Position numbers and translations under genes: made by a program
Notes under the pieces: generated by a model
The model's input: only the letters and a program-made list of their open reading frames with translations
Told to the model about the DNA's origin: nothing
The model's database searches: none
Part shown: one piece after another, positions 7,805 through 63,253 of the stretch
Layout of the letters: the number at the start of each line of letters is the position of its first letter
Position numbering within the stretch: the stretch's first letter is position 1
Source: Bacteroidales bacterium
GTDB taxonomy: Bacteria > Bacteroidota > Bacteroidia > Bacteroidales > VadinHA17
Reading direction: 5' to 3'
Length of the DNA: 64,000 nucleotides
Assembly: GCA_017882305.1 (NCBI GenBank)
Contig: JADGPU010000001.1
Span: 7,789 to 71,788 of the forward strand

Positions 7805-7819
7805 ATCACTTTCAATTGT

Positions 7820-10008: not shown

Positions 10009-10026
10009 CTGTTAATTTATTAACAG
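10009..10026. promoter_or_regulatory. Candidate Rex operator, CTGTTAA-TTTA-TTAACAG
   Basis: Perfect 7+7 palindrome with 12/14 match to TTGTTAA-N4-TTAACAA. It lies 13-30 nt upstream of the ATG at 9996. Confidence 0.65.
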
Positions 10027-14815: not shown

Positions 14816-14823
14816 TACCTTTG
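14816..14823 (+). promoter_or_regulatory. -7 box, TAccTTTG
   Basis: TACCTTTG abuts the Rex-type palindrome, 38 nt upstream of the ATG at 14861. Confidence 0.5.
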
Positions 14824-14840
14824 TGTTAATCTTTTAACAA
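14823..14840. promoter_or_regulatory. Candidate Rex operator, GTGTTAA-TCTT-TTAACAA
   Basis: 13/14 half-site match to TTGTTAA-N4-TTAACAA, ending 20 nt upstream of the hdrC-like start. Confidence 0.65.
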
Positions 14841-14860
14841 TTGTCACTTATTACAGGCTG

Positions 14861-15568: not shown

Positions 15569-15580
15569 TATTTTCAGAAA

Positions 15581-16642: not shown

Positions 16643-16648
16643 TTGTTA

Positions 16649-45556: not shown

Positions 45557-45973
45557 TTATAAATATTTCCTGTCTTCCTCGGGTATGTCAAAATATTTAT
45601 TATAGGTTTTAACATCAGGACCACTCTTTTCTTCTATTTTATTTCCCCTGATCTTATAAGTACACTTTTCTCCTGCAATACCTGAAAAATAAATGTTGTA
45701 CTCTTTTCCATCGTCATCAATCATTATAATCCTTACCAGATGATTGTACTTGGCACTGTTTAATTGTGAGTGACAGATAGGACACGTATAAATATATTCT
45801 TCACCTTCTTTTATATGGAAAGAAGGATGTGTTGTGGTTGTGTAGTTCCCGATCTCAGGATTCAAAAAAATCAATCCTCTTGCAGGACTGTTGGTTTTTG
45901 AGGCAGCAAGTACAATTGAAGTTTTAACTTTGAGATGTCCCCTGCATACTTTACAAAGATATTCTACAGCCAT
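45557..45973 (-). CDS. Hypothetical CxxC...CxxC protein, last gene of the hydrogenase operon
   Basis: 138-aa ORF with CKVCRGH and CPICHSQ about 60 residues apart. Its start overlaps the protease gene by 23 nt. Confidence 0.6.
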   Translation of the reverse strand: MAVEYLCKVCRGHLKVKTSIVLAASKTNSPARGLIFLNPEIGNYTTTTHPSFHIKEGEEYIYTCPICHSQLNSAKYNHLVRIIMIDDDGKEYNIYFSGIAGEKCTYKIRGNKIEEKSGPDVKTYNKYFDIPEEDRKYL

Positions 45974-46430
45974 GATGCACCTCCTGCTTGTTTATTAGTT
46001 TAATAATCTTATCTGCAACATTCTTTACAAGGTACGACAAATTTTCACCAAAGTCAATTTTTTCAGGTTGGATTCCGAGTACATAAACAGGCATCGTGAA
46101 GAATTCCGATAACCGTCTCAATGAAATATTATGAGTATTAAAAGTCAGATCCTGTATCTGCCTTAGTGATAGTAGTTTAAATGTTCCCGTAATGGCCTTC
46201 AAATCCACACAGTCAATAAGTATCAGTATATCGGGATTCAGACTAACTATTTTCCCGATATAATTTTCAATGCTTGCCTCTACGGTGAGCGATAATATTG
46301 AATCGTTTGTCCTTATTCTTTTGCTTATATATACACCGACACCATCATCCATTTTGAGAAGATTTCCGATTCCTACAAAAAGCTTTTTTTTATCTTTTTG
46401 GAACAGGATTTTATTTAGGTCATCATGCAT
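45951..46430 (-). CDS. hycI: Hydrogenase maturation endopeptidase (HycI/HyaD family)
   Basis: VGIGNLLKMDDGVGVY (GxGNxxxxDDGxG), LIDCVD, and FNTHNISL. Confidence 0.85.
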   Translation of the reverse strand: MHDDLNKILFQKDKKKLFVGIGNLLKMDDGVGVYISKRIRTNDSILSLTVEASIENYIGKIVSLNPDILILIDCVDLKAITGTFKLLSLRQIQDLTFNTHNISLRRLSEFFTMPVYVLGIQPEKIDFGENLSYLVKNVADKIIKLINKQEVHHGCRISL

Positions 46431-47043
46431 CCCTGAATAAGTATTTTATCTGGATTTGTCTCAGACAGTTAGGGCATATAATATTGAACATATCTTTTCT
46501 TTTCAGGTTATCTGTAATTTCAGAAGCAATGGACTGCCCTTCGGCCAGCTTTAGTTTCTCATTTAGCAGATTCAGATTCAGGATGGAAGAAAATGCTTTC
46601 GGACCAAGTTTCCTATGCATAAAATGAAGATGCTCCTTAGTTGTTATTACTGCATGGCAACTTTTACAAATGAGGAGTTCTTTTTCCTGGAATTCAACAT
46701 TTTTTTGTCTGTCAAACACAGCCAGGTCAAAAATTTTATCCGATAGTTTCACTCCTTTGCCGGTAATACAATGATCCTGACACTGCCCACAAAAGATACA
46801 CTTCCCGTAATCTCTTTTTATTGTCCTGATTCCCTTTTCTTTATCATCGACAAATGTTATAGCCTCTGGTGGACAAACATTTGCGCAGGTTTCACAACCA
46901 ACACAGTTCTCATCATCGACAACAGGCTTACCTCTGAAGTTTTCGAAAGGGACATGAGGTTCCTTCGGGAACTTCGATGTGTACGCAGGTGTGAAAAGAG
47001 AAACGAGTGCCTCTTTAACTTCTCTTACTTTAGGATACTTCAT
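46423..47043 (-). CDS. NuoI/MbhN-like 2x[4Fe-4S] subunit with a Cys-containing C-terminal extension
   Basis: CVGCETCANVCPP and CIFCGQCQDHC, with additional CKSCH ... CPNCL pairs in the last ~90 aa. Confidence 0.8.
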   Translation of the reverse strand: MKYPKVREVKEALVSLFTPAYTSKFPKEPHVPFENFRGKPVVDDENCVGCETCANVCPPEAITFVDDKEKGIRTIKRDYGKCIFCGQCQDHCITGKGVKLSDKIFDLAVFDRQKNVEFQEKELLICKSCHAVITTKEHLHFMHRKLGPKAFSSILNLNLLNEKLKLAEGQSIASEITDNLKRKDMFNIICPNCLRQIQIKYLFRDA

Positions 47044-47366
47044 TTTACAGCATCTTTATAATCATCTTTAACACTTTTATCTCCAAGTTTGATCCCGAAA
47101 TGGTAGGTCCCTCTGATAAGTGCATGAGCTGCAACAGTAGATCCAAAGAAAAGTATCGGTATCGCTATCAGAGCTTTTGTACTTGCGTCGCTAAGTCCGA
47201 AATGGAAGACCACTCCAAGCAGTATGCTGCAGCATCCCAGTGTTACGGCTTTTGTTGCTGCCTGGAGTCTATTGTAAGTATCAGGAAGTCTTATTATTCC
47301 AATACAACCCAGGAGGTTGAAGATAATTCCGATTGTTATAAAAATCAGGCTGATCATATTACTCAT
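47040..47366 (-). CDS. mrpG: Mrp/Mnh antiporter subunit G (MbhC-like)
   Basis: LLGCIGIIRLPDTYNRLQAATKAVTLG matches the MnhG signature. Confidence 0.85.
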   Translation of the reverse strand: MSNMISLIFITIGIIFNLLGCIGIIRLPDTYNRLQAATKAVTLGCCSILLGVVFHFGLSDASTKALIAIPILFFGSTVAAHALIRGTYHFGIKLGDKSVKDDYKDAVK

Positions 47367-47625
47367 TTAGTTTTTTACCCGTAAGATATTTGGCAAGCGT
47401 CAATGTGCCGATAAAACTCAGAATAATCCAGGCAATTCCGATGTCGAGAATAAATGACCTTTCTGTTTGAATGGAGATAATAGCACAAACCCCGACTACC
47501 AGTATTCCGAAAATATCTGCTCCTACCATCCTGTCGGGGATTGTAGGTCCTCTGATAATTCTGTACATGCAAATCCCGCTAAGACCTATCTGAACCCAAA
47601 GCAGTATATTAAGCCAGGTACTCAT
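47359..47625 (-). CDS. mrpF: Mrp/Mnh antiporter subunit F (MbhB-like)
   Basis: 88 aa with YRIIRGPTIPDRMVGADIFG. Confidence 0.85.
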   Translation of the reverse strand: MSTWLNILLWVQIGLSGICMYRIIRGPTIPDRMVGADIFGILVVGVCAIISIQTERSFILDIGIAWIILSFIGTLTLAKYLTGKKLNE

Positions 47626-48107
47626 TCTATTATTCTTTTAATATATTTTTCAAATGCTCCGGTTATAATTCCTGTGTAAACTTCAGGATCATCTGAGCTT
47701 ATATAGATCCAATGAATATACAGGTAGTCATCTATAATGTCGACAGAAATAGTCCCCGGTGTCATCGTAATCGAATTTGCAAGCAGCATTTTTGCCATAT
47801 CAGACTTTAATGTGGTTTTCACTTTCACAATACCTGGCCTGATCGGCATTGACGGATGAAGTACCCTGTAAGCGACATCTATATTTGCTTTTATACACTC
47901 CCAGATAAAAACTACCAGATAGACAAGAAACCAGAAATATCGGTGAGGTTGAATAAGTTTATATACATTTTTTACAAAAAACCTGGTGAATAATGCAGCA
48001 GTAATGAGAGAAGCTACCACTCCGACAATAAGATTGGGAATGGTAAATTCGAATGTTAACATTATCCAAAAGATCATTGATAATATAAAGACTGTAATGT
48101 ATCTCAT
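47622..48107 (-). CDS. mrpE: Mrp/Mnh antiporter subunit E (MbhA-like)
   Basis: ANIDVAYRVLHP and NSITMTPGTISVD. Confidence 0.85.
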   Translation of the reverse strand: MRYITVFILSMIFWIMLTFEFTIPNLIVGVVASLITAALFTRFFVKNVYKLIQPHRYFWFLVYLVVFIWECIKANIDVAYRVLHPSMPIRPGIVKVKTTLKSDMAKMLLANSITMTPGTISVDIIDDYLYIHWIYISSDDPEVYTGIITGAFEKYIKRIIE

Positions 48108-48108
48108 T

Positions 48109-49647
48109 TCATTGAACTAATATTGATGTTGAATATTTTACAGGATCAGTCAGAATATTGATTGCTGGAGTGAGAATTGCATCTCTGATTTCAGGTATAA
48201 CAAGAAGGCTTAGAAGAACACAGATAATGCTCAATACAACCATGCTGAACACCATCGGAAACGGTACTTCTCTGATATTATGATTCTTAGAATTATTTGA
48301 TCTGTTGAAAAAAGCATATCTCTGGAATTTAAGAAATGAAGCCAGAGTAATTATGCTGACTATTACTGCCAGTGCGGCAAGCAGATAAAACTTAGCCATG
48401 ACAGCGGCAATTATGATTATCAGCTTGCTGAAAAAGCCATTGAAAGGGGGAACTCCTGAAATAGACATTGATGCAATAAATGATGTTGCAGATGTTACCG
48501 GCATTGACTTCGCCAGTCCCCCCATCTCCTTAAGGTTACGGGTTCCAATGGTATATTCAATAGCACCTGCATTAAGAAATAAAAGTCCTTTAAATGCCGC
48601 ATGGTTAACAAGGTGGAAAAGGCCACCGGCAATTGCAAGCGAGGCAATCTCCGGTTTAGTTCCTCTGGAGACAAGGATCATCCCAATTCCAACCGACATT
48701 ACCACATAACCCATCTGGCTGATACTGTGATATGCAAGAAGTCTTTTAATGTCCCATTGCCCGATCGCCAGGAATACTCCAATTACCATAGACACAGTTC
48801 CAAGGGCTGTGATCAGTACTGCCATACCTTCGCTGATGGCGAACATGTTAAAAAATAATCTGATAATTACATAGATTCCGACAGCTTTAATAAATACACC
48901 TGACAGCATAGCTGAAATAGGTGAAGGAGCTGATGAGTGAGCGTCAGGCAGCCATGCATGAAAAGGAATTATGGCAGCTTTCAGACCAAAGCCGCTTAAT
49001 ATCAGAATCTGAATGAAGAGATAAGTTGTTTTATTATAACCGCTGCTGAAGGATGCTTTTATATCGGCAATATTCAGCGTTTTGGTTTTCCAGTAAATGA
49101 ATCCGATCCCGAAAAGAATTAAAAATGAGGCAAGCCCGCCAAGTATCTGATATTTAAATGAGGCCTCAAGTTCATTACTTTCAACTCCGAATGCTACCAA
49201 AGCATAGGATGAAATAACGGAAATTTCAAGGAATACGAAAATATTGAAAAGATCACCACTGAGAACTACTCCGTTCATCCCCCCGATCAAAAGACAGAAT
49301 AATGCGTAGAAATAGTTTCCGGCAGTATATCTTTTAATATAAGAAATTGAATAAAAAGCCGATAAGAAACCAATCAGGTTTATTATGCAAACTACAATTA
49401 CAGAAAATCCATCCATAACCATATAGATACCGATTGGAAGACTGTTTATTGGTTCCCAGCCACCAACTTTATATACAAATATTTTTTCTCCGGTTGTGAA
49501 AAGGAAATAGAAACTGATACAGGTCAGTAAGAGAAGGACAAGCGAGGTGAAGTATTTGTTAAACTCTTCTATAAACCTTCCGATAATCATTATCAGGAAA
49601 GCTCCAGCCAGAGGAATAATAACAAATAGTGGTATCAATGGATTCAT
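48109..49647 (-). CDS. mrpD: MrpD/NuoM-N-like antiporter-type subunit (second of two)
   Basis: 512 aa, polytopic. WLPDAHSSAPSPISAMLSG and LAYHSISQMGY. Confidence 0.9.
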   Translation of the reverse strand: MNPLIPLFVIIPLAGAFLIMIIGRFIEEFNKYFTSLVLLLLTCISFYFLFTTGEKIFVYKVGGWEPINSLPIGIYMVMDGFSVIVVCIINLIGFLSAFYSISYIKRYTAGNYFYALFCLLIGGMNGVVLSGDLFNIFVFLEISVISSYALVAFGVESNELEASFKYQILGGLASFLILFGIGFIYWKTKTLNIADIKASFSSGYNKTTYLFIQILILSGFGLKAAIIPFHAWLPDAHSSAPSPISAMLSGVFIKAVGIYVIIRLFFNMFAISEGMAVLITALGTVSMVIGVFLAIGQWDIKRLLAYHSISQMGYVVMSVGIGMILVSRGTKPEIASLAIAGGLFHLVNHAAFKGLLFLNAGAIEYTIGTRNLKEMGGLAKSMPVTSATSFIASMSISGVPPFNGFFSKLIIIIAAVMAKFYLLAALAVIVSIITLASFLKFQRYAFFNRSNNSKNHNIREVPFPMVFSMVVLSIICVLLSLLVIPEIRDAILTPAINILTDPVKYSTSILVQ

Positions 49648-49650
49648 ATT

Positions 49651-49989
49651 TTATCCTCTTAAGTTTTTTATCTCTCTTATATCGAAAGTCCCATACTTTC
49701 TGTAAAGCCTTATAATGACGGCCATGAGCATCGCAGTCGTTGCCAGTCCGATAACAATGGCTGTAAGCACCAGTGCCTGTGGTAAAGGATCAACATATAC
49801 TTTCACAGGATCAGTCGGATCTACGATTGGTGCAACTCCGCCATCAATATAACCTATAAGTGTGAAGAACAAAAAGGTACTTATTTCCATTATCGAAAGT
49901 GAAACAGCAATCTTAATCAGGTTTCTCCTGGTTATTACGCCGTATAATCCGACCAGAAACAATATGAAACACATTATATAAGCAATCAT
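49651..49989 (-). CDS. mrpC: MrpC/NuoK-like subunit (MbhG-like)
   Basis: 112 aa with 3 TM helices and LTAIVIGLATTAMLMAV. Confidence 0.85.
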   Translation of the reverse strand: MIAYIMCFILFLVGLYGVITRRNLIKIAVSLSIMEISTFLFFTLIGYIDGGVAPIVDPTDPVKVYVDPLPQALVLTAIVIGLATTAMLMAVIIRLYRKYGTFDIREIKNLRG

Positions 49990-50423
49990 TCTTTAGACTC
50001 CTCCTTAAAGATTATCAATGAAAGAAATATTATAAATATTGATGCAGCGACCTCAGTTCCAACAAAAATATTGTAAAGAGGTAATACACCTGCACTTACA
50101 AGATGTCCGACAATTCCTTTCGGAAGAAAATTGTTAAAGAAGATTTTAGTCCCGAATATAAAACCGGAAACGGCAACGAGTATAACCAGGATCGTAGCTA
50201 AACTTTCGATTATGGTAGTTCCTGATTCTTCTTTTATGAGTTTCATAAAATCGCCACCATTAGAAAGCGTAATCAGTATGAGAGAGCCTGCAATAACGAC
50301 TCCGCCTGCAAATCCTCCTCCCGGAGTAAGATGACCATGTACTATAACATAAATCCCGTACATAAAAATCATACCTGCAATAAGCTGGGTGGTTTTTTTT
50401 ACTATTAGTGTCATCCCTTTCAT
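49986..50423 (-). CDS. mrpB: MrpB-like subunit (MbhF-like)
   Basis: GHLTPGGGFAGGVVIA. ATG at 50423 is chosen; the track's TTG at 50438 lies inside the heptamer array. Confidence 0.8.
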   Translation of the reverse strand: MKGMTLIVKKTTQLIAGMIFMYGIYVIVHGHLTPGGGFAGGVVIAGSLILITLSNGGDFMKLIKEESGTTIIESLATILVILVAVSGFIFGTKIFFNNFLPKGIVGHLVSAGVLPLYNIFVGTEVAASIFIIFLSLIIFKEESKE

Positions 50424-50429
50424 AAAGCA

Positions 50430-50504
50430 AAAAGTCAAAATTCAAAAGTCAAAACTCAAAACTCAATATTCAATCTGCACCCTGCATCCTGCACCCTGCA
50501 ACTC
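50430..50504. repeat. 7-nt-period array (11 units) filling an intra-operon gap
   Basis: aaaagtc aaaattc aaaagtc aaaactc aaaactc aatattc aatctgc accctgc atcctgc accctgc aactcct. Confidence 0.85.
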
Positions 50505-51032
50505 CTATTTCTTCCCTCTTAATCTTAAAATAGTCAGCACTCCCAATACTGCTGTTACAAGTACGACCGCTTCCCCCATCGTATCGTAACCCCTGAAATC
50601 AAAAACAACACCTGTTACAAGATTAGCACTACCGGTTTTTTGTGCAGCACCTTCTATATAATGTTTTGCCATTCTTAACGAACTTTTCCCAAGAACATCA
50701 AGCGACTGAATTGAAACAGTATAAAAATAAAGGAGTAGCAAGCCCAGGAAAATTGCGGTTACTGCAGAAATATATCCCTGGGTATCAAGTTTTAAATATG
50801 ATTCCTCGCGGGAGCTGTCGAGGACAACAGCAACCATAATTATCAGAGTTATTGTATCAACTACGATCTGAACAATTGCGAGGTCGGGTGCTTTCAGAAG
50901 TAAAAAACATATTACCAGACTATATCCTACAAGACCACAAGCTATTACTGAAGAAAGCAAATCCCTGGCATGGATAGCATACAATGCCCCGAAAATCATG
51001 AATCCTACTATTATAGATATGGTCAGGTCCAT
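50505..51032 (-). CDS. MrpA C-terminal-domain / MbhD-E-like subunit (DUF4040 + MnhB-related segment)
   Basis: 175 aa. [17 protein letters not shown], with a C-terminal [22 protein letters not shown]. Confidence 0.75.
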
Positions 51033-51047
51033 TTCAGCTTTAATTAT

Positions 51048-52907
51048 TTATATCATAATAAGTAGCATAACTATTAATCCTGCAAAAACCCAGATGACAT
51101 AACCAGGTAATACTCCAGCATGAGCTTCACTCAACTGGTGACTAAGCCAGAGTACAAACTTTTTTGACAGGTCATAAATGTCAAACCATCGTTCTTCAGC
51201 TTTTTTATAGATCCATGAAAACAACCGGAATTCACCAATTGTTTTATAGAATTCCGTAGTGGAATAACTTGTCTGATCCTGAATTTTTTCTCCTCCGATA
51301 AAGCTATCTTCAGTTCTGAATTTCTTAAGATTGAATGCCAGATAGAGAATTATTCCAAGAATTATTGAGGTTAGAACAAGCAACGATACAAATGATGAAT
51401 TCCAGAATCCCTTGAATTGAAATGCACCTGAAACAGGCATGAATAGTTTTGGTACAATGAAATTTGTGGCAAATACACCAAAAAAGATACAGAATAAAGC
51501 AAGGATAACCAGTGGTACCAACATCATAACTGGTACTTCCCTGACCTTTTCAAACTCTGGCCTCCGTCGGCCCAGGAAGATTCCACCTATTAATTTAATA
51601 AAGCTTGCAAGAGTAAGCGCTGATCCAAGCACTGCCAATCCAAGCCATAATACCCAAAGTTTATTAGCCAAACCTGATCCGGTTCCAAAATCAATTATTC
51701 CCTGGTATATCATCCATTTTGAAGCAAAACCGTTTAATGGAGGTACTCCTGAAATAGACATGGCAAAAATCAGAGCTGCAAAGAATGTAACAGGCATTGC
51801 TTTTGACAGACCACCAAGGTTGTCGATATCTTCTTCCCCGGTACGAAATTCCACGCATCCGGCAGAGAGGAAAAGCCCGCTTTTATATAAGGCATTATTT
51901 ATCATATGGAACAGACCTGCTGCCACACCTATCATCGAACCAAGTCCGAATCCGAGAATCATATAACCCACCTGCGAAACTGCATGAAATCCGAGCAACC
52001 GTTTGTAATTATGCTGAACCAGAGCCATCATTACAGCAGTGATAATTGAAATCGTTCCAAGAGATAACAGAAGAATCCTCATCCATTCATTCAGGACGAA
52101 TATACAAGTGGTTAACCTGGCAAGAAAGTAAATACCCAGAAGCTTATCAAGGGAAGCAGGAAGATAAGCAGATGAAGAGGCCGGTGCACTCTTTGCATAA
52201 TCCGGAACCCATGTATGAAACGGGAAAGCGCCCGCTTTAGTGAAACTCCCAATAAGTAAAGCCAGAAAAGCAACAACTGACAATACATTTGTGGTTGGTA
52301 ACGATATACCTCCCATACTTAAAGAACCGGTAAGCTTCCACAGGATTGCGATCCCGATTATCATAATACTATCGGAAGCTCCAATAAGAATGAGAGTTTT
52401 CTTGGCAGTTGCGGAGCTTTCCTCATCAGTGCCTTGTATCAGCTTATATAAAGTTATTCCAAGAATACCCCAGAATAAAATGAATAAAAGCAGGTTATCA
52501 GATACAACGGCACCATATGCACAACCAAGAGTAATAAGAAAATACGGATAATAGTTTCTGACTCTTCCATCTTTAATATAAGCCAGTGAATATATTAGGA
52601 TTAAAAAGCTAAAAAGACTGATAAACATGATAATAAGTCTGCTAAGGTTATCGCAGTTGAATGCCATATACCTTCCGGCATCATGAAGAAAGTCAAAACC
52701 AAAAACAAACATTGTTGAACCGGATGAAAGCTCATTCAGATGATGAAGCTGACTACCTGAACTGTAAATTACAATTGTAAGATAACCTGTAACGATACTT
52801 ACCAGCAGAGCAATAATACCTTTGACGGTTCTGAATTTTTCCGGAACGAAAAAAAGTAAAAGGCCGATAAAAACAGGCAGGGCAATTATGCTGATGATCT
52901 CTGTCAT
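51048..52907 (-). CDS. MrpA-N/NuoL/MbhH-like antiporter-type subunit (first of two)
   Basis: 619 aa, polytopic. WVPDYAKSAPASSSAYL and LGFHAVSQVGYM. Confidence 0.9.
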   Translation of the reverse strand: MTEIISIIALPVFIGLLLFFVPEKFRTVKGIIALLVSIVTGYLTIVIYSSGSQLHHLNELSSGSTMFVFGFDFLHDAGRYMAFNCDNLSRLIIMFISLFSFLILIYSLAYIKDGRVRNYYPYFLITLGCAYGAVVSDNLLLFILFWGILGITLYKLIQGTDEESSATAKKTLILIGASDSIMIIGIAILWKLTGSLSMGGISLPTTNVLSVVAFLALLIGSFTKAGAFPFHTWVPDYAKSAPASSSAYLPASLDKLLGIYFLARLTTCIFVLNEWMRILLLSLGTISIITAVMMALVQHNYKRLLGFHAVSQVGYMILGFGLGSMIGVAAGLFHMINNALYKSGLFLSAGCVEFRTGEEDIDNLGGLSKAMPVTFFAALIFAMSISGVPPLNGFASKWMIYQGIIDFGTGSGLANKLWVLWLGLAVLGSALTLASFIKLIGGIFLGRRRPEFEKVREVPVMMLVPLVILALFCIFFGVFATNFIVPKLFMPVSGAFQFKGFWNSSFVSLLVLTSIILGIILYLAFNLKKFRTEDSFIGGEKIQDQTSYSTTEFYKTIGEFRLFSWIYKKAEERWFDIYDLSKKFVLWLSHQLSEAHAGVLPGYVIWVFAGLIVMLLIMI

Positions 52908-54109
52908 ATCTGACTATTAAAAGTGTTCTTTATTTCATTAGTCTTCTTTGCTGATTCATTAATCAATTCATTAGCGTTCATTATTCTTTCTCCTGAATTT
53001 ATATCATAAGCTACAGCCATCCTTTCGGTACAACAGTAACAAGGATCAACGGCTGCAAGGGAAATTGTGGCATCAGCAATTGTCTGCCCGATACACGATT
53101 TTTTAAATGTGGCAATATTGACATAGCTGGGAGCCCTTATCTTATGTCTGACCGGAGAACTGGAACCATCTGATTGCACAAAATGGAATACTTCACCTCG
53201 TGGAGCTTCAGCACGGCCATTCCCAATACCTTCAGGTATCTCTTTCACTTTAATTGTAATATCACCCTCTTTTTCTTTATTAAGACCATCGAGACATTGT
53301 TCAATTATTGAGATTGATTCATACATCTCAAGCAATCTGACCTCTGCTTTAGCAAAAACATCACCGGATTCTGCTGTTATCACTTTCCAGTTAACAAGCG
53401 GATAGGCTGCATACGGATCATCTTTACGTACATCAATAGCCACACCCGACGCACGCGCAGTTGGTCCAACTGCACCATAATCAATAATATCCTGCTTTGT
53501 AAGAATACCAACCCCTTTGGTTCTGGCATGAATTACCGGATCATCCATTATTGCTCCTGTCAGTAAATCGGTCTTTTTCTTAATATCATCCAGAACCTTA
53601 TGAATAGCAGGAATTTTAATCGCTTCAATATCTCTTCTGACGCCACCCACCCTGAACATTGCATAGCTGTTCCTGTTTCCTGATATCATCTCAAAAAGAT
53701 CGAGAACAGGTTCACGATATTTCCATGCCCACATGAAAACAGTATTATAACCCAGGAAATGTCCTGCAAGTCCAACCCAGAGGAGATGACTGTGAAGACG
53801 CTCCAGTTCACCGATTATTGATCTTATATATTTTGCCCTGTTTGTAATTTCGATATCTGCAATTTCTTCGACAGCATTAGCAAAAGCAAAAGGATGAGAA
53901 TTTGAACATATACCGCATATTCGTTCAACAAGGAAAAAAATCTGTTCGTAAGTTTTTGATTCACTTAGTTTCTCTATACCACGATGATTATATCCGGTCT
54001 CCCATTTTATGTCTTTTACAATCTCACCGTCACAGTAAAGCTTGAACAATTCTGGTTCTTCCTGAAGTGGATGATAAGGTCCGATCGGTATGAGTGTTTT
54101 TTTGCTCAT
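52904..54109 (-). CDS. Group-4 [NiFe]-hydrogenase large subunit (MbhL/NuoD-like)
   Basis: N-terminal RICGICSNSH and C-terminal DPCYCCTER supply all four Ni-Fe Cys ligands. A 38-aa tail follows the C-terminal motif. Confidence 0.92.
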   Translation of the reverse strand: MSKKTLIPIGPYHPLQEEPELFKLYCDGEIVKDIKWETGYNHRGIEKLSESKTYEQIFFLVERICGICSNSHPFAFANAVEEIADIEITNRAKYIRSIIGELERLHSHLLWVGLAGHFLGYNTVFMWAWKYREPVLDLFEMISGNRNSYAMFRVGGVRRDIEAIKIPAIHKVLDDIKKKTDLLTGAIMDDPVIHARTKGVGILTKQDIIDYGAVGPTARASGVAIDVRKDDPYAAYPLVNWKVITAESGDVFAKAEVRLLEMYESISIIEQCLDGLNKEKEGDITIKVKEIPEGIGNGRAEAPRGEVFHFVQSDGSSSPVRHKIRAPSYVNIATFKKSCIGQTIADATISLAAVDPCYCCTERMAVAYDINSGERIMNANELINESAKKTNEIKNTFNSQI

Positions 54110-54128
54110 AATGGATAATCTCCGTATA

Positions 54129-54566
54129 TTATTTAAACTCTTTCCTTAAAGGATAAACACCTTCAGCCCAGTTGCCTTCCGAGATAAGTTTTTCCTGGTT
54201 GGGGTGATTCAGAAAATTTATCCCAAGAAGCTCGTGCATCTCCCTTTCTATCCAGTTTGAAGCATTGAACATGTTCGAAAGTGAGGCAATCTGTGGATTA
54301 CTCCTGTCAAGCACCACATGTACGTTCAGTATAAGTCCTGAAATATCTTTACTGAAATGATAATGAATCTCAAACCCTCTTTTAGTATGTAATGCTGAAG
54401 CAATAATAAACCTGAACCCAGCTATCCTGTATAAATATTCGGCAACATTTACAATTGAATCCGGATTGACAGTAATAATCATCCGCTTCTGATTCTTTAC
54501 CCTTATCTCCAGAATGTCAGATTTGAATTCCTCTTTGAATTTTTCTATGGTCAACTCTGAATCCAT
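54129..54566 (-). CDS. NuoC/MbhK-like subunit
   Basis: 145 aa with NWIEREMHELLGINFLNHPN. Confidence 0.85.
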   Translation of the reverse strand: MDSELTIEKFKEEFKSDILEIRVKNQKRMIITVNPDSIVNVAEYLYRIAGFRFIIASALHTKRGFEIHYHFSKDISGLILNVHVVLDRSNPQIASLSNMFNASNWIEREMHELLGINFLNHPNQEKLISEGNWAEGVYPLRKEFK

Positions 54567-54574
54567 TTTATATT

Positions 54575-54988
54575 TTATGAGTTCTGTACAAGCTTAATAA
54601 TACCGGCAATAATAGCTTCGGGTTTAGGTGGACATCCCGGCACGTAAGCATTAACCGGAATTATTTTATCAACAGGACCTGCAAATGTGTAGCTTTCAGT
54701 AAAGTATCCTCCTGTACAACCGCAAGCACCAATTGCAACAACCAGTATAGGTTTTGGAGCCTGGTTGTAAACCTCTATCAGTCTCTCCTTATCACGCGTA
54801 TTTATTGAACCATTGACAAGCAATACATCCGCATGCCTGATACTTCCGACCAGCAAAATTCCAAAACGTTCAAGATCGTGTCTTGGTGTTAGGCAATCAA
54901 GTATCTCAATATCACAATTATTGCAGGAAGCTCCTCCAAAATGAAAGACCCAGAGAGATTTTTTAAAGCAATAATTTTTGAAACCCAC
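54575..54988 (-). CDS. Hydrogenase small subunit, NuoB/MbhJ-like
   Basis: GGASCNNCDIE, IGACGCTGG and PGCPP ligate the proximal 4Fe-4S cluster. The likely GTG start at 54988 comes just after the upstream stop; the track ORF extends to 55054. Confidence 0.85.
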   Translation of the reverse strand: MGFKNYCFKKSLWVFHFGGASCNNCDIEILDCLTPRHDLERFGILLVGSIRHADVLLVNGSINTRDKERLIEVYNQAPKPILVVAIGACGCTGGYFTESYTFAGPVDKIIPVNAYVPGCPPKPEAIIAGIIKLVQNS

Positions 54989-54999
54989 GTTAATAAATT

Positions 55000-55932
55000 T
55001 TAGTAGCCAAATGCAATCAATACCAATGCGATGATGGCAATCAGGTTCATCCACACAACGAAGAAGCTGATAGCCTGCTTAATCTTTACCCTTGGATTTG
55101 TGTTCCGTATCAGAGTCAGGATTAGTACTACGGCAAAAATCTTCAGTAATGCCCATAAAATATGAATTCCCTCAAACCTGAAGCCGTTCATTAACAGCGC
55201 AACCAGAAAAGCAGGGAGGATAAAAAACATGATATATTTTGTAAGCTTTATCATTGCGTAAGCTGCACCGGAATATTCAATGAAAATCCCTTCAGTAATT
55301 TCAGCCTCTGCTTCAGGCATATCAAATGGTACAAGTGCCAGTTTTGCCTGGATGCAAAAAATACCTACAACGAATAGTAGTACTCCTGAAATACTACCTA
55401 TGAACGGAGATCCTGCCTTTTGTGCCTGTATAATTGAATATAAATCAAAATGTTGCCCACATTTCATAATGATCCCGGCAATAAACAGGAGAAAGGTCAG
55501 CTCATAACTTAGGATTAGTTTCATCTCTCTTGATCCGCCGACCGCAGCCAGAGGATTGCCGGAAGCGAGTGCACCTATAATATATGAGAATGAAGGGATA
55601 GTAAGGAGGTAAAAAATTACTATCAGATCACCCCTGAATCCTGTCGTGATATTCAGCAGGGGAAGGAGTATGAATACCCCTGCCATAGTCGCGCCAAATA
55701 CTGCAAAGATGGGAGCAACGAGAAATATTAACGGTGATCCATGTTTAGGCAGTATTGTTTCCTTGACTAATAATAATTTGAAGAAATCGTAGAATGGCTG
55801 TAATATTGGAGGCCCATTGCGAAATTGTACCCTGGCAGTTATTTTCCTGTCGAACCACGAAAGGAATGCTCCCGTTACTGCTGCAAAGAGCAGTCCGGGG
55901 AAGACAAGAAAATAAAAGAGATTAACTGCCAT
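55000..55932 (-). CDS. NuoH/MbhM-like membrane subunit
   Basis: 310 aa with FDRKITARVQFRNGPP and 8 predicted TM helices. Confidence 0.88.
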   Translation of the reverse strand: MAVNLFYFLVFPGLLFAAVTGAFLSWFDRKITARVQFRNGPPILQPFYDFFKLLLVKETILPKHGSPLIFLVAPIFAVFGATMAGVFILLPLLNITTGFRGDLIVIFYLLTIPSFSYIIGALASGNPLAAVGGSREMKLILSYELTFLLFIAGIIMKCGQHFDLYSIIQAQKAGSPFIGSISGVLLFVVGIFCIQAKLALVPFDMPEAEAEITEGIFIEYSGAAYAMIKLTKYIMFFILPAFLVALLMNGFRFEGIHILWALLKIFAVVLILTLIRNTNPRVKIKQAISFFVVWMNLIAIIALVLIAFGY

Positions 55933-55943
55933 ATTACTGGTAT

Positions 55944-56441
55944 TTAATGTTTTTCAGTGATATATAAAAGATCTCTTACAAGTACTTTTTCATTAAGGCA
56001 ATAAATATTCTTATCCGGAGATTCATCTTCATCAGTAAGAGTTACTGTTCCCACAGGACAAGCCTTGATGAATTTTTCCATCTCCTTTTCATCTTTCAGA
56101 TCATAGAAGAGGTCTTTATTCCTGTGGTGTTTAAAGAAATCAGTCATCATTGTTCCGAAGGGACAAATTGTAACACACGATTTGCATGAAACACAAAGAT
56201 TTGTATATCGTACAACGATTCCATTTTCATCTTTTTCCAGGGCATCTGCAGGACAAACGCTGATACAGGGGGCATCTTCACATTTTCTACATGTAAATCT
56301 GAAAGTAGCAAGCTCACGGATTGTCTTTAACCCGTTTATATTAAGTGTCGGATAGAAATAAGCCTCAGGTACTGCAGTACTTGAGTCTTCAATCATGGCT
56401 GAACGCAGCTTGATCATATCTATCAGGATCTTACGGGTCAT
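55944..56441 (-). CDS. CooF/HycB-like 4Fe-4S electron-transfer protein
   Basis: CRKCEDAPCISVCP, CVSCKSCVTICP, and a third Cys group CPVG. Confidence 0.8.
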   Translation of the reverse strand: MTRKILIDMIKLRSAMIEDSSTAVPEAYFYPTLNINGLKTIRELATFRFTCRKCEDAPCISVCPADALEKDENGIVVRYTNLCVSCKSCVTICPFGTMMTDFFKHHRNKDLFYDLKDEKEMEKFIKACPVGTVTLTDEDESPDKNIYCLNEKVLVRDLLYITEKH

Positions 56442-56495
56442 TTTATATACTTTTAAAAAGAGCTGTATGCCATTGTTTTTACGTTAATTAATTTA

Positions 56496-56951
56496 TTATA
56501 AAGTCAACTGGTTCATCAACTGGAACCTTGTATCGCTCAGACGGTAAGAAATTGTCTGGGCGATTTTTGACATTGTTTTAAACCCGAATTCACAGTTTTT
56601 TTCAAACTCCAGAATGAGTTTTTTAGAGTCAATAGCCATGACTTTTGTAGGGCATGTGGCTTTTACCCAGGCTGTTGAGATGTAAGGGCTGAAAACTGCC
56701 GACCATGAGAAGAGCTGACCCTCCTCTAATGTGCCGAGATGGATTCTCTTTTCCTTAGCCAGGCTTATTCCCAGTGATAAACATCCGGTAAGCAATACAT
56801 AAATCTCGTTAAGCTCATCATACTGTTCAAACAAAATATCTTTTACTTTGAATTCTTTTATGGAGCTTATACCAATAAATATATTCAATTGTTTATCCGT
56901 ATAATTGTCAAAAAACCTGACATTTTTCAAATCATTAATTGTAAGTTCCAT
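56496..56951 (-). CDS. Cyclic-nucleotide-binding-like domain protein without a DNA-binding domain
   Basis: 151 aa with a Crp/FNR effector-domain beta-barrel pattern (FEQYDELNEIYVLLTG, GTLEEGQLFSWSAV). No HTH follows. Confidence 0.7.
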   Translation of the reverse strand: MELTINDLKNVRFFDNYTDKQLNIFIGISSIKEFKVKDILFEQYDELNEIYVLLTGCLSLGISLAKEKRIHLGTLEEGQLFSWSAVFSPYISTAWVKATCPTKVMAIDSKKLILEFEKNCEFGFKTMSKIAQTISYRLSDTRFQLMNQLTL

Positions 56952-57008
56952 AGTCTGTTAAATATTAATTTTAAAAAGAACGAGATAATATGTTGAATTC
57001 TGATATGC

Positions 57009-57836
57009 TTATTTCCATATTTCAGGATTATGTTTTATCTCATTATATGTAAAAACAGGGCCGTCTCTGCAAACGAAGAATTCACCCATCATACAATGCC
57101 CGCATTTACCTAAGCCGCACGACATGTTCTTTTCCATCGAAAGGTAAATCTGATCATCTTTATATCCCATTTCCAGTAGTCTGATAGTTCCGAATTTCAT
57201 CATGACCGGTGGGCCACAAACTACAGCAACAGAATTCTCTATATTAATTTTGATTTTATTAAGAAGAGTCGTTGCAACTCCTACTGAACCATCCCAGTCT
57301 TCATCTGCTTTATCTACAGTACGATATGCTTCAAACTTTTCTGTCCTGTTTAACCGGTCAAAAAGGGGTTTGTAGATACAATCGGAAGGAGACTTGGATC
57401 CATAACAAAGGATAACCTTGACCAGTTTATCTTTAATACTTTCGAGCGCATAAAGAAGCGATCGAATGGGAGCAAGACCGCAACCACCACCCAGGATTAG
57501 CACTTCTTTGCCAAAGAACGATTCGACAGGATAACCTCTTCCATAAGGACCTCTTATTCCCATATAAACTCCGGGTTTCAGCATATGCATATACTCTGTA
57601 ACGTATCCTGTTTTCATTACAGTAACTTCGAGTTTTTCTGTAATCAAAGGTGAAGAAGAGGGTGTAAAGGGAGCTTCCCCTATTCCATCAACAGATAATT
57701 CGATAAACTGACCAGTTTTAAAAGAGAACTTGTTTTCAGGTACCATTACAAATGTTTTAATAGATGGTGATTCCTCAATAACATCTGTAAGCCTTGCCTT
57801 TATAGGACTGTATATGTTCCTGTCATCCTTCATCAA
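57009..57836 (-). CDS. FAD/NAD(P)-binding + [2Fe-2S] oxidoreductase (AsrB / sulfhydrogenase-gamma / PyrK-like)
   Basis: FTPSS (RxxS-type FAD site), GGGCGLAPIRS (NAD(P) site), and a C-terminal CGLGKCGHCMMGEFFVCRDGP. Confidence 0.85.
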   Translation of the reverse strand: MMKDDRNIYSPIKARLTDVIEESPSIKTFVMVPENKFSFKTGQFIELSVDGIGEAPFTPSSSPLITEKLEVTVMKTGYVTEYMHMLKPGVYMGIRGPYGRGYPVESFFGKEVLILGGGCGLAPIRSLLYALESIKDKLVKVILCYGSKSPSDCIYKPLFDRLNRTEKFEAYRTVDKADEDWDGSVGVATTLLNKIKINIENSVAVVCGPPVMMKFGTIRLLEMGYKDDQIYLSMEKNMSCGLGKCGHCMMGEFFVCRDGPVFTYNEIKHNPEIWK

Positions 57837-58831
57837 TGGCTATTTTCAAGTTCCATAAATATTTCGTTTTTATTGATCTTTCCTATACAGGCTTCAATGC
57901 ATCTGCCACACCCCGTACAAGCGAGGGAACTGAATTTTCCGGGTTTCCATACATATTTGCACATGTATCTGTTTCTAAATCGATTGTGAAGTTCATACAA
58001 TGCATCTTCTCCTCCTGCAACCCTTTCAAATCCTGGATACTGGCATGCATCCATTTGTTTTACCTTCTCAAAACCTGGCTTGTCAATAAGAAGAAAACAC
58101 GTACATGTCGGGCAGATTGTGGTACAGGCTCCGCAGGAGACACACCTGGCAGAATATTTTTCCCATATATCACCTTTCGCGCTCGTCGTGAGATCACCCG
58201 TCTTTTTATAATCAGGCAATCCTTTATTTGATTTTGTAAGCAACGTTTCTGTTGCAAGATGTTCCTTTTCAATTACCGCAATTAAATTTTTATCTACCTG
58301 TGATGTAAATGCAGGGATCTTCCTGACAAACTCTTCCCCTTTTACGGACAATATTCTCAGCACAATTGTTCCATCAAGGTTTATAACTGCCAGGTCAGCA
58401 TGCTTTTCAGAATATGGCTTAACGTTATATGATAAACAGTGGCAATGTTCCTGAATTCCAAAACAATCAGATGCTATAAGAAGAGTGTTCTCGCGACGCT
58501 TCGAGTAAAATAAATCACTAAACTCCTTGTCGAGATAAATATCGTCAGGAAGACATAGTCCTTCAATATCGCAATTGGGGATACCAATAATGATCCTTGG
58601 CTTTTCCTCAGCCTTCATGGATGATACATTTTCTTTAACAGGAAGAAAGAAGCTTTTAAGTGGGGTAGACGGTTTAGGTTTATTATAGGTAATTTTTGCA
58701 ATATCTTCAGACCTGATCAATTCATAATCAATGCCAAATTCATTCTCAACACTTGCAAAAATGGTATAGGATAACAACAAATGCTCTAATGTCTTATCCC
58801 ACTCTTCCTTTTTTATGCAATTATACTGCAT
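57833..58831 (-). CDS. 4Fe-4S protein (AsrA / sulfhydrogenase-beta-like), first gene of the operon
   Basis: CVSCGACTTICPTCTCF and CTGCGRCIEAC. Confidence 0.8.
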   Translation of the reverse strand: MQYNCIKKEEWDKTLEHLLLSYTIFASVENEFGIDYELIRSEDIAKITYNKPKPSTPLKSFFLPVKENVSSMKAEEKPRIIIGIPNCDIEGLCLPDDIYLDKEFSDLFYSKRRENTLLIASDCFGIQEHCHCLSYNVKPYSEKHADLAVINLDGTIVLRILSVKGEEFVRKIPAFTSQVDKNLIAVIEKEHLATETLLTKSNKGLPDYKKTGDLTTSAKGDIWEKYSARCVSCGACTTICPTCTCFLLIDKPGFEKVKQMDACQYPGFERVAGGEDALYELHNRFRNRYMCKYVWKPGKFSSLACTGCGRCIEACIGKINKNEIFMELENSH

Positions 58832-58838
58832 TTAATTT

Positions 58839-58856
58839 ATGTGAGAAGTTTCACAG
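58839..58856. promoter_or_regulatory. Candidate Rex operator; the minus strand reads CTGTGAA-ACTT-CTCACAT
   Basis: Contains TGTGA-N6-TCACA, with 11/14 half-site match to TTGTGAA-N4-TTCACAA. It lies 8-25 nt upstream of the ATG at 58831. Confidence 0.6.
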
Positions 58857-58857
58857 A

Positions 58858-58865
58858 TAAAATTA
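58858..58865 (-). promoter_or_regulatory. -7-like box, TAatTTTa
   Basis: The minus strand reads TAATTTTA, 1 nt before the palindrome. The placement matches that at 10029 and 14816. Confidence 0.4.
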
Positions 58866-58935
58866 AAATCTAGTAAAATAAAATCAACAGACATTTTATC
58901 TGTTTTTACTGTTTAAATATTAACAAAACACGTAT

Positions 58936-58950
58936 TTGATTGTATATCAA
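58936..58950. promoter_or_regulatory. Palindrome TTGAT-N5-ATCAA in the divergent hydrogenase/rex region
   Basis: ttgattgtatatcaa. Confidence 0.35.
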
Positions 58951-59021
58951 TATTATAAAAATATATTTTTAATTAATAAATTATTAATTAACTTGCAAAT
59001 TGAAAATATAAAGATGAATTG

Positions 59022-59039
59022 ATGTGAAACAAATCACAA
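59022..59039. promoter_or_regulatory. Candidate Rex operator, ATGTGAA-ACAA-ATCACAA, overlapping the rex start codon
   Basis: 12/14 half-site match to TTGTGAA-N4-TTCACAA. The GTG start of rex is at 59024. Confidence 0.5.
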
Positions 59040-59707
59040 AAAACATCATTAAAAACAGTCTGAAAAGGATTTTTCTTTACAGGGCATGCCTTGTGAGGCT
59101 AAAATTAATGGGAGTTGAAAAAGTCTTTTCTTATACTCTTGCAAATGAAACAGGTGTCACCTCTGACCAGGTAAGAAAAGATTTTTCTGAATTCTGTATA
59201 AAGGGAAATAAGCGTGGCGGATATAATATTAATGATCTGCTTGAAAAGATGGAAAAGTTATTCCACCGCAACAAAGATAATAATATTGTGCTAATCGGCA
59301 TGGGGAATATGGGTCTTGCACTTTCGAAGTACAGTAAATTTGTACAGCGTCATATGAATATTGTTGCAACCTTCGACATTGATCCTTTCAAACAGAAAAT
59401 GAGATCCGGTATACCGGTATATTCAATGAGCCGTTTGAAAGAAATCATTGACAGGTTCAGTGTTAAAGTGGCTATCGTTGCCGTACCTGAGATTTCTGCC
59501 CAGGAAGTTACCGATGAACTTATTCGGCATGGCATATCCGGAATAGTGAATTTTGCACCTGTACTATTAAAAGTGTCGCCGGATGTGATCATAAATAACG
59601 TAAACCTTTGCGATGAACTTGAAAGCGTTATTTATTATGTTCATAAACAAATTAAAGTTAATGGACTTAAAAACCTGGAGCTATTATACAGGGATATGAA
59701 ATATTGA
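59024..59707 (+). CDS. rex: Redox-sensing transcriptional repressor Rex
   Basis: N-terminal winged helix (LKRIFLYRACL...VTSDQVRKDFSEF...KRGGYNI) followed by a Rossmann fold (VLIGMGNMGLAL). Confidence 0.9.
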   Translation: MKQITKNIIKNSLKRIFLYRACLVRLKLMGVEKVFSYTLANETGVTSDQVRKDFSEFCIKGNKRGGYNINDLLEKMEKLFHRNKDNNIVLIGMGNMGLALSKYSKFVQRHMNIVATFDIDPFKQKMRSGIPVYSMSRLKEIIDRFSVKVAIVAVPEISAQEVTDELIRHGISGIVNFAPVLLKVSPDVIINNVNLCDELESVIYYVHKQIKVNGLKNLELLYRDMKY

Positions 59708-61938: not shown

Positions 61939-62162
61939 TGTGTCTGAGTATTCCAGCAAAGATTGTATCCATCGACGGTAATATGGCAGAGGTATCAGCC
62001 GGAGGTGCAATATTTAGTGCAGGTCTGCATATGATCGAAAATGCCAGGGTCGGAGACTATGTCCTTTTACATGCCGGGTTTGCAATCCAGAAGATAAGTG
62101 ATAAGGAGGCTGAAGAAACTATAAGATTACTTGAAGAGATGAATAATTCTCTGAATGAATAA
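61938..62162 (+). CDS. hypC: Hydrogenase assembly chaperone HypC
   Basis: 74 aa beginning MCLSIPAKIV. Confidence 0.92.
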   Translation: MCLSIPAKIVSIDGNMAEVSAGGAIFSAGLHMIENARVGDYVLLHAGFAIQKISDKEAEETIRLLEEMNNSLNE

Positions 62163-62167
62163 TATGT

Positions 62168-63253
62168 ATGAAGTACATTGATGAGTTCAGAAATAAAGAT
62201 CTGGTCACGAAACTTGCTGATCTTATCCATAAGACAGCCATACGTGATTATGTCTTTATGGAAGTGTGCGGAGGACATACGGCTGCGATACACAGGTTTG
62301 GCATTCCGTATTTACTTCCGGAGAATGTGAAGCTGATCTCTGGTCCGGGATGTCCCGTATGTGTTACAGGAACAGATTTCATTGATAAGGCTATCGCTTA
62401 TTCAAAAATGGAAGATATTATAATTACAACTTATGGAGATTTAATTAAAGTACCAGGTTCATCTTCATCACTCGAAAAAGAAAAAGCAGCTGGGGCGGAT
62501 ATAAGAATTGTTCTTTCAGGGCTTGATGCGCTTGAGATCGCCATGATAAATTCTGGTAAAAAAATCATTTTTCTGGGCATAGGATTTGAAACAACTGCTC
62601 CAGGCACTGCTGTCACAATAAAAGAGGCTAAAAGGGAGAATGTTAAGAATTTTTTTCTCTTAAATGCACATAAACTGATGCCTCCTGCAATGGAGGCCAT
62701 TATAAGAGAAGGAGTCAGGCTTGATGGTTTTATTTGTCCGGGGCATGTCGCCACCATTACTGGTTCTTCAATATTTAATTTCATTCCTGAGAAGTTTAAT
62801 CTGGCATGTGTAGTAACAGGTTTTGAACCTTTGGATATATTGCAATCAATTCTGATGCTGATAAAAATGGTAAACAAAGATGCTCCAAAAGTGGAGATTC
62901 AATATAACCGCGCAGTTACATTGTATGGCAACTCAATAGCACAGAAGCATCTGTCAGAAGTCTTCAAACCGTGTGATGCTCCCTGGAGAGGCTTTGGAGT
63001 AATTCCTTTAAGCGGACTTACGTTAAGAAAGGATTTTGAGAAGTTTAATATAGAGAATGAAATACCGGTAGAAATTAGTTATCAGGAAGACAATGAACTT
63101 TGTATCTGTGGAAAGATCCTTACGGGACTGGAAACGCCAGAGGATTGTCCGCTTTTCGCAGAAATATGCTTTCCGGAAAATCCAGTGGGAGCATGTATGG
63201 TTTCCAGTGAAGGGACCTGCAACAGCTGGTATAAATACAGAATGGTTAAATGA
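62168..63253 (+). CDS. hypD: Hydrogenase formation protein HypD
   Basis: EVCGGHT, SGPGCPVCV, GFETTAP, and CPGHV motifs. Confidence 0.92.
   Translation: MKYIDEFRNKDLVTKLADLIHKTAIRDYVFMEVCGGHTAAIHRFGIPYLLPENVKLISGPGCPVCVTGTDFIDKAIAYSKMEDIIITTYGDLIKVPGSSSSLEKEKAAGADIRIVLSGLDALEIAMINSGKKIIFLGIGFETTAPGTAVTIKEAKRENVKNFFLLNAHKLMPPAMEAIIREGVRLDGFICPGHVATITGSSIFNFIPEKFNLACVVTGFEPLDILQSILMLIKMVNKDAPKVEIQYNRAVTLYGNSIAQKHLSEVFKPCDAPWRGFGVIPLSGLTLRKDFEKFNIENEIPVEISYQEDNELCICGKILTGLETPEDCPLFAEICFPENPVGACMVSSEGTCNSWYKYRMVK

Follow-up and report, generated by a model that had tools for sequence, protein, structure and literature searches.

Conserved candidate Rex operators at the divergent promoters of a [NiFe] hydrogenase operon and rex-hypFCDE in an uncultured Bacteroidales bacterium

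In the 64-kb stretch of DNA analysed here (contig JADGPU010000001.1 of a Bacteroidales bacterium, positions 7,789 to 71,788; hereafter the window), a hydrogenase operon and a rex-hypFCDE operon diverge from a 192-bp spacer that runs from an ATG at 58831 on the minus strand to a GTG at 59024 on the plus strand. Two palindromes that both lie within this spacer, O1 and O2, are probably functional operators of Rex, the redox-sensing repressor encoded directly beside them. An earlier, sequence-only reading had proposed Rex-type operators on both sides of this region and repression of both operons by Rex; both palindromes are present where it had placed them when the letters of the window are re-read, and the proposed repression is supported by the comparative evidence presented below, namely motif, conservation, proximity to start codons and the redox genes that are targeted. 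The consensus Rex site is TTGTGAA-N4-TTCACAA (PMC2883068, PMC6391272), with a variant TTGTTAA-N4-TTAACAA (PMC5886521). O1, which reads C-TGTGAA-ACTT-CTCACA-T on the minus strand, has 3 mismatches to the former (11/14), and O2, which reads A-TGTGAA-ACAA-ATCACA-A on the plus strand, has 2 (12/14), while the ten-base TGTGA/TCACA core is perfect in both. The exact 16-base pattern TGTGAA-N5-TCACA occurs twice in the window, at O1 and O2 only, where 0.14 matches are expected, and two matches were reached in 4/100 dinucleotide-preserving shuffles. O1 begins, as had been claimed, 1 nucleotide (nt) past TAATTTTA (58865-58858, minus strand), the predicted -7 box of the hydrogenase promoter. The distance from O1 to the first start codon of the operon had been given as 8 nt, which is wrong, as 7 nt (58832-58838) separate it from the ATG at 58831. 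The overlap of O2 with the GTG start of rex (open reading frame (ORF) 59024-59707) stands, and domain content and an equivalog match identify this ORF as Rex.

Both palindromes are conserved as phylogenetic footprints in 34-45 species, which is the outcome anticipated for genuine operators by the sequence-only reading. One genome per species was scanned, giving 46 Bacteroidales loci in which Rex is 64-95% identical to that of the window; the nearest protein relatives are encoded by uncultured Bacteroidales or Bacteroidia genomes, and the organism is known solely as metagenome-assembled genomes. The layout of hydrogenase operon, spacer and rex-hypF is kept in about 38 of the 46 loci, and the first protein of the hydrogenase operon has diverged to about 58-65% identity among relatives. 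In an alignment of the spacers of 34 species, the palindrome arms are the sole long invariant runs, with a mean majority frequency of 0.99-1.00, compared with 0.81-0.91 for the six internal bases of the palindromes and 0.66 for the rest of the spacer. The codons that lie in the arms of O2 show no synonymous change among 45 distinct rex orthologues (GTG 45/45, ATC 32/32, ACA 45/45, AAA 43/43); for comparison, among 56 degenerate conserved codons located farther into rex, the major codon averages a frequency of 0.57 and attains 0.97 in only 2% of cases. In the two codons at the centre of O2, the amino acid itself is altered in about 29% of sequences. As the arm codons are frozen while the centre changes its amino acids, the constraint tracks the palindrome and not the reading frame. 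The start codon of rex is GTG in all 45 orthologues, and since this GTG is part of a TGTGA arm, an ATG in its place would break the operator. O1 stays 1 nt past the -7 box across the related species, its gap to the ATG of the hydrogenase operon is 7 nt in the window and 2-3 nt in most relatives, and the distance between O1 and O2 is held at 180-186 bp (mode 183, 34 loci) despite the divergence of the intervening sequence. DNA looping between O1 and O2 was considered and set aside: 183 bp correspond to about 17.4 helical turns and, to our knowledge, Rex does not form tetramers.

Loci with a different arrangement are also informative. In four species (L009, L030, L037 and L043) the membrane-bound hydrogenase operon is swapped for an operon that encodes a HycI protease, MvhD/FlpD and a [NiFe] small subunit (380-2832 in L009); the operator is still present in all four, 184 nt upstream of rex, and in L009, L037 and L043 an additional Rex-type site precedes mvhD. 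In another species (L038) O1 has decayed to TGTGAGAAATGTACAC, and the same spacer carries a perfect TGTTAA-N4-TTAACA site, TGTTAAATAATTAACA, 95 nt upstream of rex. The pattern resembles turnover of one site type into the other (TGTGAA and TGTTAA), and the two types therefore appear to be interchangeable, as in published Rex regulons. Outside the Bacteroidales, a locus from the Neomarinimicrobiota (L047), whose Rex is 36% identical to that of the window, carries the Rex-like TCGTGAATTTTATCACAA just upstream of rex.

The protein whose start codon is embedded in O2 has the two domains of Rex, an N-terminal winged-helix domain and a Rossmann NAD(H) domain, and scores 205.8 bits against the Rex equivalog model NCBIfam NF003996, for which the cutoff is 138. 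Its N-terminus has the canonical length in matches to Rex structures in the PDB, which reach E = 5e-35 to 1e-31 (S. agalactiae, T. ethanolicus, B. subtilis and T. maritima), and more than 100 of its close homologues carry the name Rex. An alignment to T. maritima Rex was read against the published list of Rex-NAD+-DNA contacts (PMC8836258), the C-terminal Phe201 falling outside the alignment. The pair of recognition-helix residues that read the bases, Arg48/Lys49 in T. maritima, corresponds to R51/K52 in the window Rex. The other DNA contacts R12, S33, Q46, S52, G58 and Y64 are kept as R15, S36, Q49, S55, G61 and Y67, and the NAD(H) pocket N92, A96', Y100', D115 and K120 is kept as N95, A99, Y103, D118 and K123. 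The protein thus resembles the Rex-DNA complexes that have been solved (Thermus, T. maritima, T. ethanolicus and S. agalactiae) in the Arg-Lys pair that reads the G and A of GTGA and in the Asn/Asp/Lys/Tyr' pocket for NAD(H). The wing differs slightly, with GNKRGGY in the window Rex and GKRGVGY in T. maritima, and the wing residues R60 and G61 are out of register (K63 and R64 in the window Rex). By domains, equivalog cutoff and conserved DNA and NAD(H) residues, the ORF at 59024 is a bona fide Rex, as the sequence-only reading had it.

The distribution of the motif is consistent with a Rex regulon. A relaxed core, TGTKA-N6-TMACA, has 4 exact matches in the window against 0.42 expected, a number that 0/100 shuffles reach. 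The window is 92% coding by a crude ORF map, and all 4 matches are start-proximal and beside the starts of redox genes: at 10010 (13 nt in front of a sulfide:quinone reductase (SQR) gene), at 14824 (21 nt before an HdrC/HdrB-like operon), and at O1 and O2. In 0.93 Mb of related loci, about 125 of 137 core matches are intergenic or overlap a start codon, and the 12 apparently coding matches are mostly orthologous operators at which the ORF start was mis-called. The motif is thus not as common within genes as in promoters, with 4/4 matches in the window and about 125/137 in related loci being start-proximal. This set of related loci is by construction enriched for orthologous sites, and so its informative part is the additional targets that it reveals. 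Counted by target, promoter-proximal matches number 45 at rex, 40 at the hydrogenase operon, 33 at the HdrC-like gene, 9 at SQR, 4 at an Mvh-type hydrogenase operon (with 3 further internal matches) and 2 at a NuoE-like gene; beyond O1 and O2, the conserved targets encode redox enzymes, and two more kinds of hydrogenase operon are among them. The position of the 10009 site upstream of SQR is kept in 9 loci, the window included, and the 14823 site is kept in 33 metagenome loci from closer relatives. More distant relatives keep the -7 box of the HdrC-like promoter while the Rex-type site is absent, so that this site is not simply part of the promoter. The coordinates of the palindromes, of the further sites and of the genes and promoter elements that surround them are collected in Table 1.

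Table 1. Palindromes, promoter elements and genes of the window (positions are those of the window; promoter elements are predicted)
Feature	Position	Strand	Sequence or basis
O1, Rex-type palindrome of the hydrogenase promoter	58839..58856		plus strand ATGTGAGAAGTTTCACAG, minus strand CTGTGAAACTTCTCACAT
O2, Rex-type palindrome overlapping the rex GTG start	59022..59039	.	plus strand ATGTGAAACAAATCACAA
rex, redox-sensing repressor	59024..59707	+	227 amino acids, GTG start; PF06971 and PF02629
Predicted -7 box, hydrogenase promoter	58858..58865	-	TAATTTTA; sigma-ABfr type, A for final G
Predicted -33 element, hydrogenase promoter	58885..58887	-	TTG; spacing to the -7 box 19 nt (20 nt in most relatives)
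Predicted -7-like box, rex promoter	58989..58996	+	TAACTTGC; inside the conserved block TTAACTTGCA (58988-58997)
Further Rex-type site	10009..10026	.	CTGTTAATTTATTAACAG; 12 nt upstream of the type III SQR gene
Further Rex-type site	14823..14840	.	GTGTTAATCTTTTAACAA; abuts TACCTTTG; 20 nt upstream of the HdrC/HdrB-like operon
hypF	59704-61938	+	kept beside rex in relatives
hypC	61938-62162	+	Pfam match
hypD	62168-63253	+	Pfam match
hypE	from 63250, cut by window end (64000)	+	reading frame and AIRS domains
19-gene hydrogenase operon	45557..58831	-	Pfam and NCBIfam matches
ShyB/AsrA-like FeS protein, first gene of the hydrogenase operon	57833-58831	-	NCBIfam
ShyC/AsrB-like FAD/NAD(P)-binding protein	57009-57836	-	NCBIfam
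Protein with a cyclic nucleotide monophosphate (cNMP)-binding domain only, 151 amino acids	56496-56951	-	PF00027, no helix-turn-helix
Type III SQR gene	8764-9996	-	best NCBIfam match to the 'selenoprotein subtype' model, 613 bits
HdrC/HdrB-like and flavoprotein (pyridine-nucleotide-disulfide-oxidoreductase) operon	14861-17677		14816-17677 with its -7 box and Rex-type site

Promoters of the Bacteroidetes have a -7 box, TAnnTTTG, and a -33 element, TTTG, at a distance of about 19-21 nt from it, and their commonest 5' leader is 23 nt long; the spacing of the elements predicted for the hydrogenase promoter matches this reported -33/-7 layout (PMC7366714). The TA..TTTA positions of its -7 box are invariant in the spacer alignment while the two n positions vary, and the block ATCAAT (plus strand) at the predicted -33 element is conserved. 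Transcription of the hydrogenase operon is predicted to start near 58854, which is inside O1, and O1 covers nearly the whole of the predicted 5' leader. On the rex side, the mean majority frequency is 0.84 in the TTAACTTGCA block and 0.66 in the spacer around it, and no other block besides O2 is conserved; some relatives (e.g. L026) have a perfect TAnnTTTG at the position of the -7-like box. The predicted start of rex transcription near 59000 would place O2 at about +22 to +39. The 14823 site shares its first base with the end of a perfect -7 box, TACCTTTG; as O1 also lies directly past a -7 box, this operator placement recurs. A further conserved block in the middle of the spacer (58944-58960; ATATCA ... 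ATAAAAA, with invariant C/A and T/A columns) lies outside the palindromes and the assigned -7 boxes, and its minus strand contains TATTTTTA, which has the pattern TAnnTTTA; this block could be a second promoter or a site for another factor. A weaker third site in the spacer (58908-58927, 11.9 bits) is unconserved in the spacer alignment and was not counted as an operator. One-mismatch matches to the core within genes (at 13028, 15132, 44035, 60988 and 63603) score 9.3 bits or less and were taken as chance.

Several points weigh against the assignment of O1 and O2 to Rex as operators. Each of the two palindromes has one imperfect half-site (TGTGAG in O1, ATCACA in O2), and the outermost T and A of the canonical 18-mer, positions 1 and 18, are uninformative and unconserved in this clade. 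The transcription starts are predictions from sequence, and by these predictions O2 is downstream of its promoter, which is a weaker position for repression. Part of the conservation of O2 could come from constraints on translation initiation. The weight matrix built on related loci, in which the four sites of the window score 20.1-20.8 bits and the next best match 11.9, was built from sites selected by regular expression and is hence partly circular. We note that the imperfection of the half-sites is itself kept across species, with TGTGA in O1 followed by G, T or C and never by A, and with O2 having mostly ATCACA, which suggests an affinity that is tuned to be submaximal.

The core is also common to CRP-type sites and as such does not by itself name the factor that binds it. 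E. coli CRP recognises the consensus TGTGA-N6-TCACA, which is exactly the conserved core of O1 and O2, identical over 16 bp and in spacing, and anaerobes carry many regulators of the CRP/FNR family. Rex would be told from CRP by an A following TGTGA and a T preceding TCACA, each of which is present in only one half-site per operator. Two observations would fit such a regulator: the hydrogenase operon encodes a protein with a cNMP-binding domain, and in a related locus (L079) a gene for an FNR-like regulator (233 amino acids with an N-terminal Cys cluster) is divergent to SQR and shares the region of a TGTTAA-type site (around 2215-2388), a caveat for assigning the SQR site to Rex in that lineage. 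However, the cNMP-binding protein of the operon is without a DNA-binding domain, and tblastn detected no CRP/FNR-family gene, and no full-length regulator of this type, in the 64-kb window. The sites, one of them on the start codon of rex, accompany rex in 45 species, whatever hydrogenase adjoins it, and the locus from the unrelated phylum Neomarinimicrobiota also has its site, TCGTGAATTTTATCACAA, upstream of rex. Variants of the form TGTTAA-N4-TTAACA are present at 10009, at 14823 and in L038, and these correspond to the published Rex variant of Thermoanaerobacterales and Clostridia and not to CRP. It is therefore unlikely that O1 and O2 are bound by a CRP/FNR-family regulator in place of Rex.

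Still less probable is that the palindromes act as RNA hairpins, in the hydrogenase leader and at the rex start, that tune translation or stability. Each palindrome can fold a 5-bp stem with a 6-nt loop at or over a start codon, the 44-nt hydrogenase leader has a folding energy of -8.8 kcal/mol (z = -2.6), and conservation around a start codon can come from initiation constraints. However, the stems are only 5 bp long, the rex region is unremarkable (z = -1.5), and the bulk of the -8.8 kcal/mol is contributed by a second hairpin that does not include the palindrome. Moreover, instead of covarying, the arms are invariant, and the same arms are found at four unlinked promoters, with the HdrC-like site starting at the -7 box, as a shared DNA-binding factor would predict and four separate RNA structures would not. 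That the palindromes are functionless products of chance in AT-rich intergenic DNA has next to no likelihood, since although the genome is AT-rich and weak matches to the consensus (3 mismatches) are common in the window (19 against 7.75 expected), the exact core is expected 0.14 times yet is found twice in one spacer, among 34 species, whose flanking proteins fall to about 58-65% identity, its arms are conserved at 99-100% and the remaining spacer at 66%, and the synonymous sites under O2 are frozen, so that conservation refutes this explanation as far as computation goes.

Directly behind rex, hypF, hypC, hypD and hypE are packed tightly and without gaps, and the operon 3' of rex is thus hypF-hypC-hypD-hypE as previously read, which is borne out by the ORFs, by the Pfam matches of HypC and HypD and by the AIRS domains of HypE. 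In the divergent operon, the ShyB/ShyC-like pair and the cNMP-domain-only protein are accompanied by genes for a ferredoxin; NuoH/B/C/D/L-like proteins; MbhD/E; MnhB; a NuoK-like protein; MrpD/E/F/G-like proteins; a further, NuoI-like ferredoxin; and a HycI protease. The large subunit (401 amino acids) has both Ni-Fe ligand motifs, RICGICSNSH and DPCYCCTER, and the closest solved structure is the P. furiosus Mbh (6CFW_L, E = 6e-86). Because both motifs are present and P. furiosus Mbh is the nearest solved relative, the divergent operon is, to judge by its encoded proteins, a genuine group 4 [NiFe] hydrogenase of the Mbh/Mrp type; subunit families, Ni-Fe motifs and the 6CFW_L match together uphold the identity given to it by the sequence-only reading. 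The ShyB/ShyC-like pair is kept beside rex in about 38 species, and this ShyBC-like front end suggests that the membrane-bound hydrogenase may be linked to NAD(P)H rather than to ferredoxin. A literature search on this type of hydrogenase in Bacteroidetes yielded nothing specific. The gene for the cNMP-domain-only protein separates the NAD(P)H module from the Mbh/Mrp genes. A 7-bp hairpin, AUGCAGU-AUA-AUUGCAU, holds the start codon of the first gene of the hydrogenase operon (58815-58831, minus strand).

If O1 and O2 are operators of Rex, a mechanism can be proposed by analogy with the Rex family, whose members would be expected to bind such sites and to release them at high NADH. At a low NADH/NAD+ ratio, a Rex dimer on O1 would block initiation of transcription of the 19-gene hydrogenase operon, and a second dimer on O2 would hinder promoter escape or elongation into rex-hypFCDE. 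Occupancy of O2 would also result in negative autoregulation and would keep the hyp maturation genes in step with the structural genes of the hydrogenase. In the family, NADH binding closes the Rex dimer and frees the DNA (PMC8836258). As such, accumulation of NADH would cause Rex to leave the DNA, and the hydrogenase and its maturation machinery would then be made together. We infer that an excess of NADH would switch on H2 metabolism in this organism, and the catalytic direction of the hydrogenase is likewise inferred. Derepression could then plausibly let the cell shed excess reducing equivalents as H2, since the operon opens with an NAD(P)H-binding ShyBC-like module.

The consensus site and the NADH response of Rex are established in several Gram-positive bacteria (PMC2883068), and Rex control of hydrogenases and of rex itself is already established in Firmicutes and widely predicted; such control is not conceptually new. 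The closest parallels come from two Firmicutes. In Caldicellulosiruptor bescii, electrophoretic mobility shift assays have shown binding of Rex at [NiFe] and [FeFe] hydrogenase genes, at hydG and at rex itself, and TTGTGAA-N4-TTCACAA-type sites precede the membrane-bound [NiFe] hydrogenase, maturation genes and rex as they do here, with binding that is NADH-sensitive and repressive (PMC6391272). In contrast to C. bescii, the present system belongs to the Bacteroidota and has predicted -7/-33 sigma-ABfr promoters rather than sigma-70 ones; its hypFCDE genes are in one operon with rex, one of its two candidate operators contains the rex start codon, and a ShyBC-like module that binds NAD(P)H heads its hydrogenase operon. 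In Thermoanaerobacterium saccharolyticum, Rex sites have been predicted at echABCDEF-hypABFCDE, hfs, hydG and asrABC (PMC5886521). That system is similar in placing a group 4 [NiFe] hydrogenase and hyp genes under a Rex site and in using the TTGTTAA-N4-TTAACAA variant, as at 10009 and 14823. However, it has one site 138 nt upstream of a single ech-hyp operon, whereas here there are two operators for two divergent promoters, each about 40 nt or less from a start codon, and the TGTGAA and TGTTAA types coexist in one genome. O1 and O2 share the 18-bp inverted repeat of the prototype Rex/ROP sites (S. coelicolor and S. aureus, TTGTGAAW4TTCACAA), and differ from these prototypes in that positions 1 and 18 are uninformative in this clade and one imperfect half-site is retained per operator. 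Likewise, while sharing its core with the CRP operator, the present system departs from it in the occurrence of TGTTA variants and in the linkage of the sites to rex. No Rex regulon in Bacteroidetes was found in the literature searched, the coverage of which was incomplete. The local features of this system are thus the Bacteroidetes promoter context, an operator that holds the GTG of its own regulator, the fusion of hyp genes to rex, and the use of the same two-operator layout by different hydrogenases.

Taken jointly, these features allow a more speculative interpretation, which we regard as possible but doubtful. The rex-hypFCDE operon and its two operators might form a fixed regulatory dock for varying hydrogenase cassettes, either Mbh/Mrp with a ShyBC-like front end or Mvh, in which the start of rex would be locked as GTG because it is part of an operator arm. 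Under this view, H2 metabolism would have Rex as its dedicated master switch, and the Mbh-type enzyme would be NAD(P)H-coupled and ion-translocating, not ferredoxin-coupled.

The related uncultured Bacteroidales come, according to record titles, from fens, peat bogs, lake sediments and Danish soils, habitats in which H2 from fermentation sustains methanogens. Should Rex gate the hydrogenases, the hyp genes, the Hdr-like complex and SQR, the NADH/NAD+ ratio would set when abundant fermenters release H2. If true, the Bacteroidota, with their unusual promoter type, would join the groups to which the Rex paradigm applies, and a motif as compact as TGTKAA-N4-TTMACA directly past a -7 box may enable reconstruction of the regulon in metagenomes. 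Two minor observations concern the further targets. In the window, SQR is followed on its 3' side, on the same minus strand, by genes for a DsrE-like protein (7878-8375) and a class V aminotransferase (6247-7842). In another related locus (L045), rex is followed by a gene for a NuoE-like, thioredoxin-like [2Fe-2S] protein (3780-4318; compare L044 at 778) with a core site about 58 nt upstream; the NuoE-like gene of L045 may belong to a module of the [FeFe]-hydrogenase or NADH-dehydrogenase kind.

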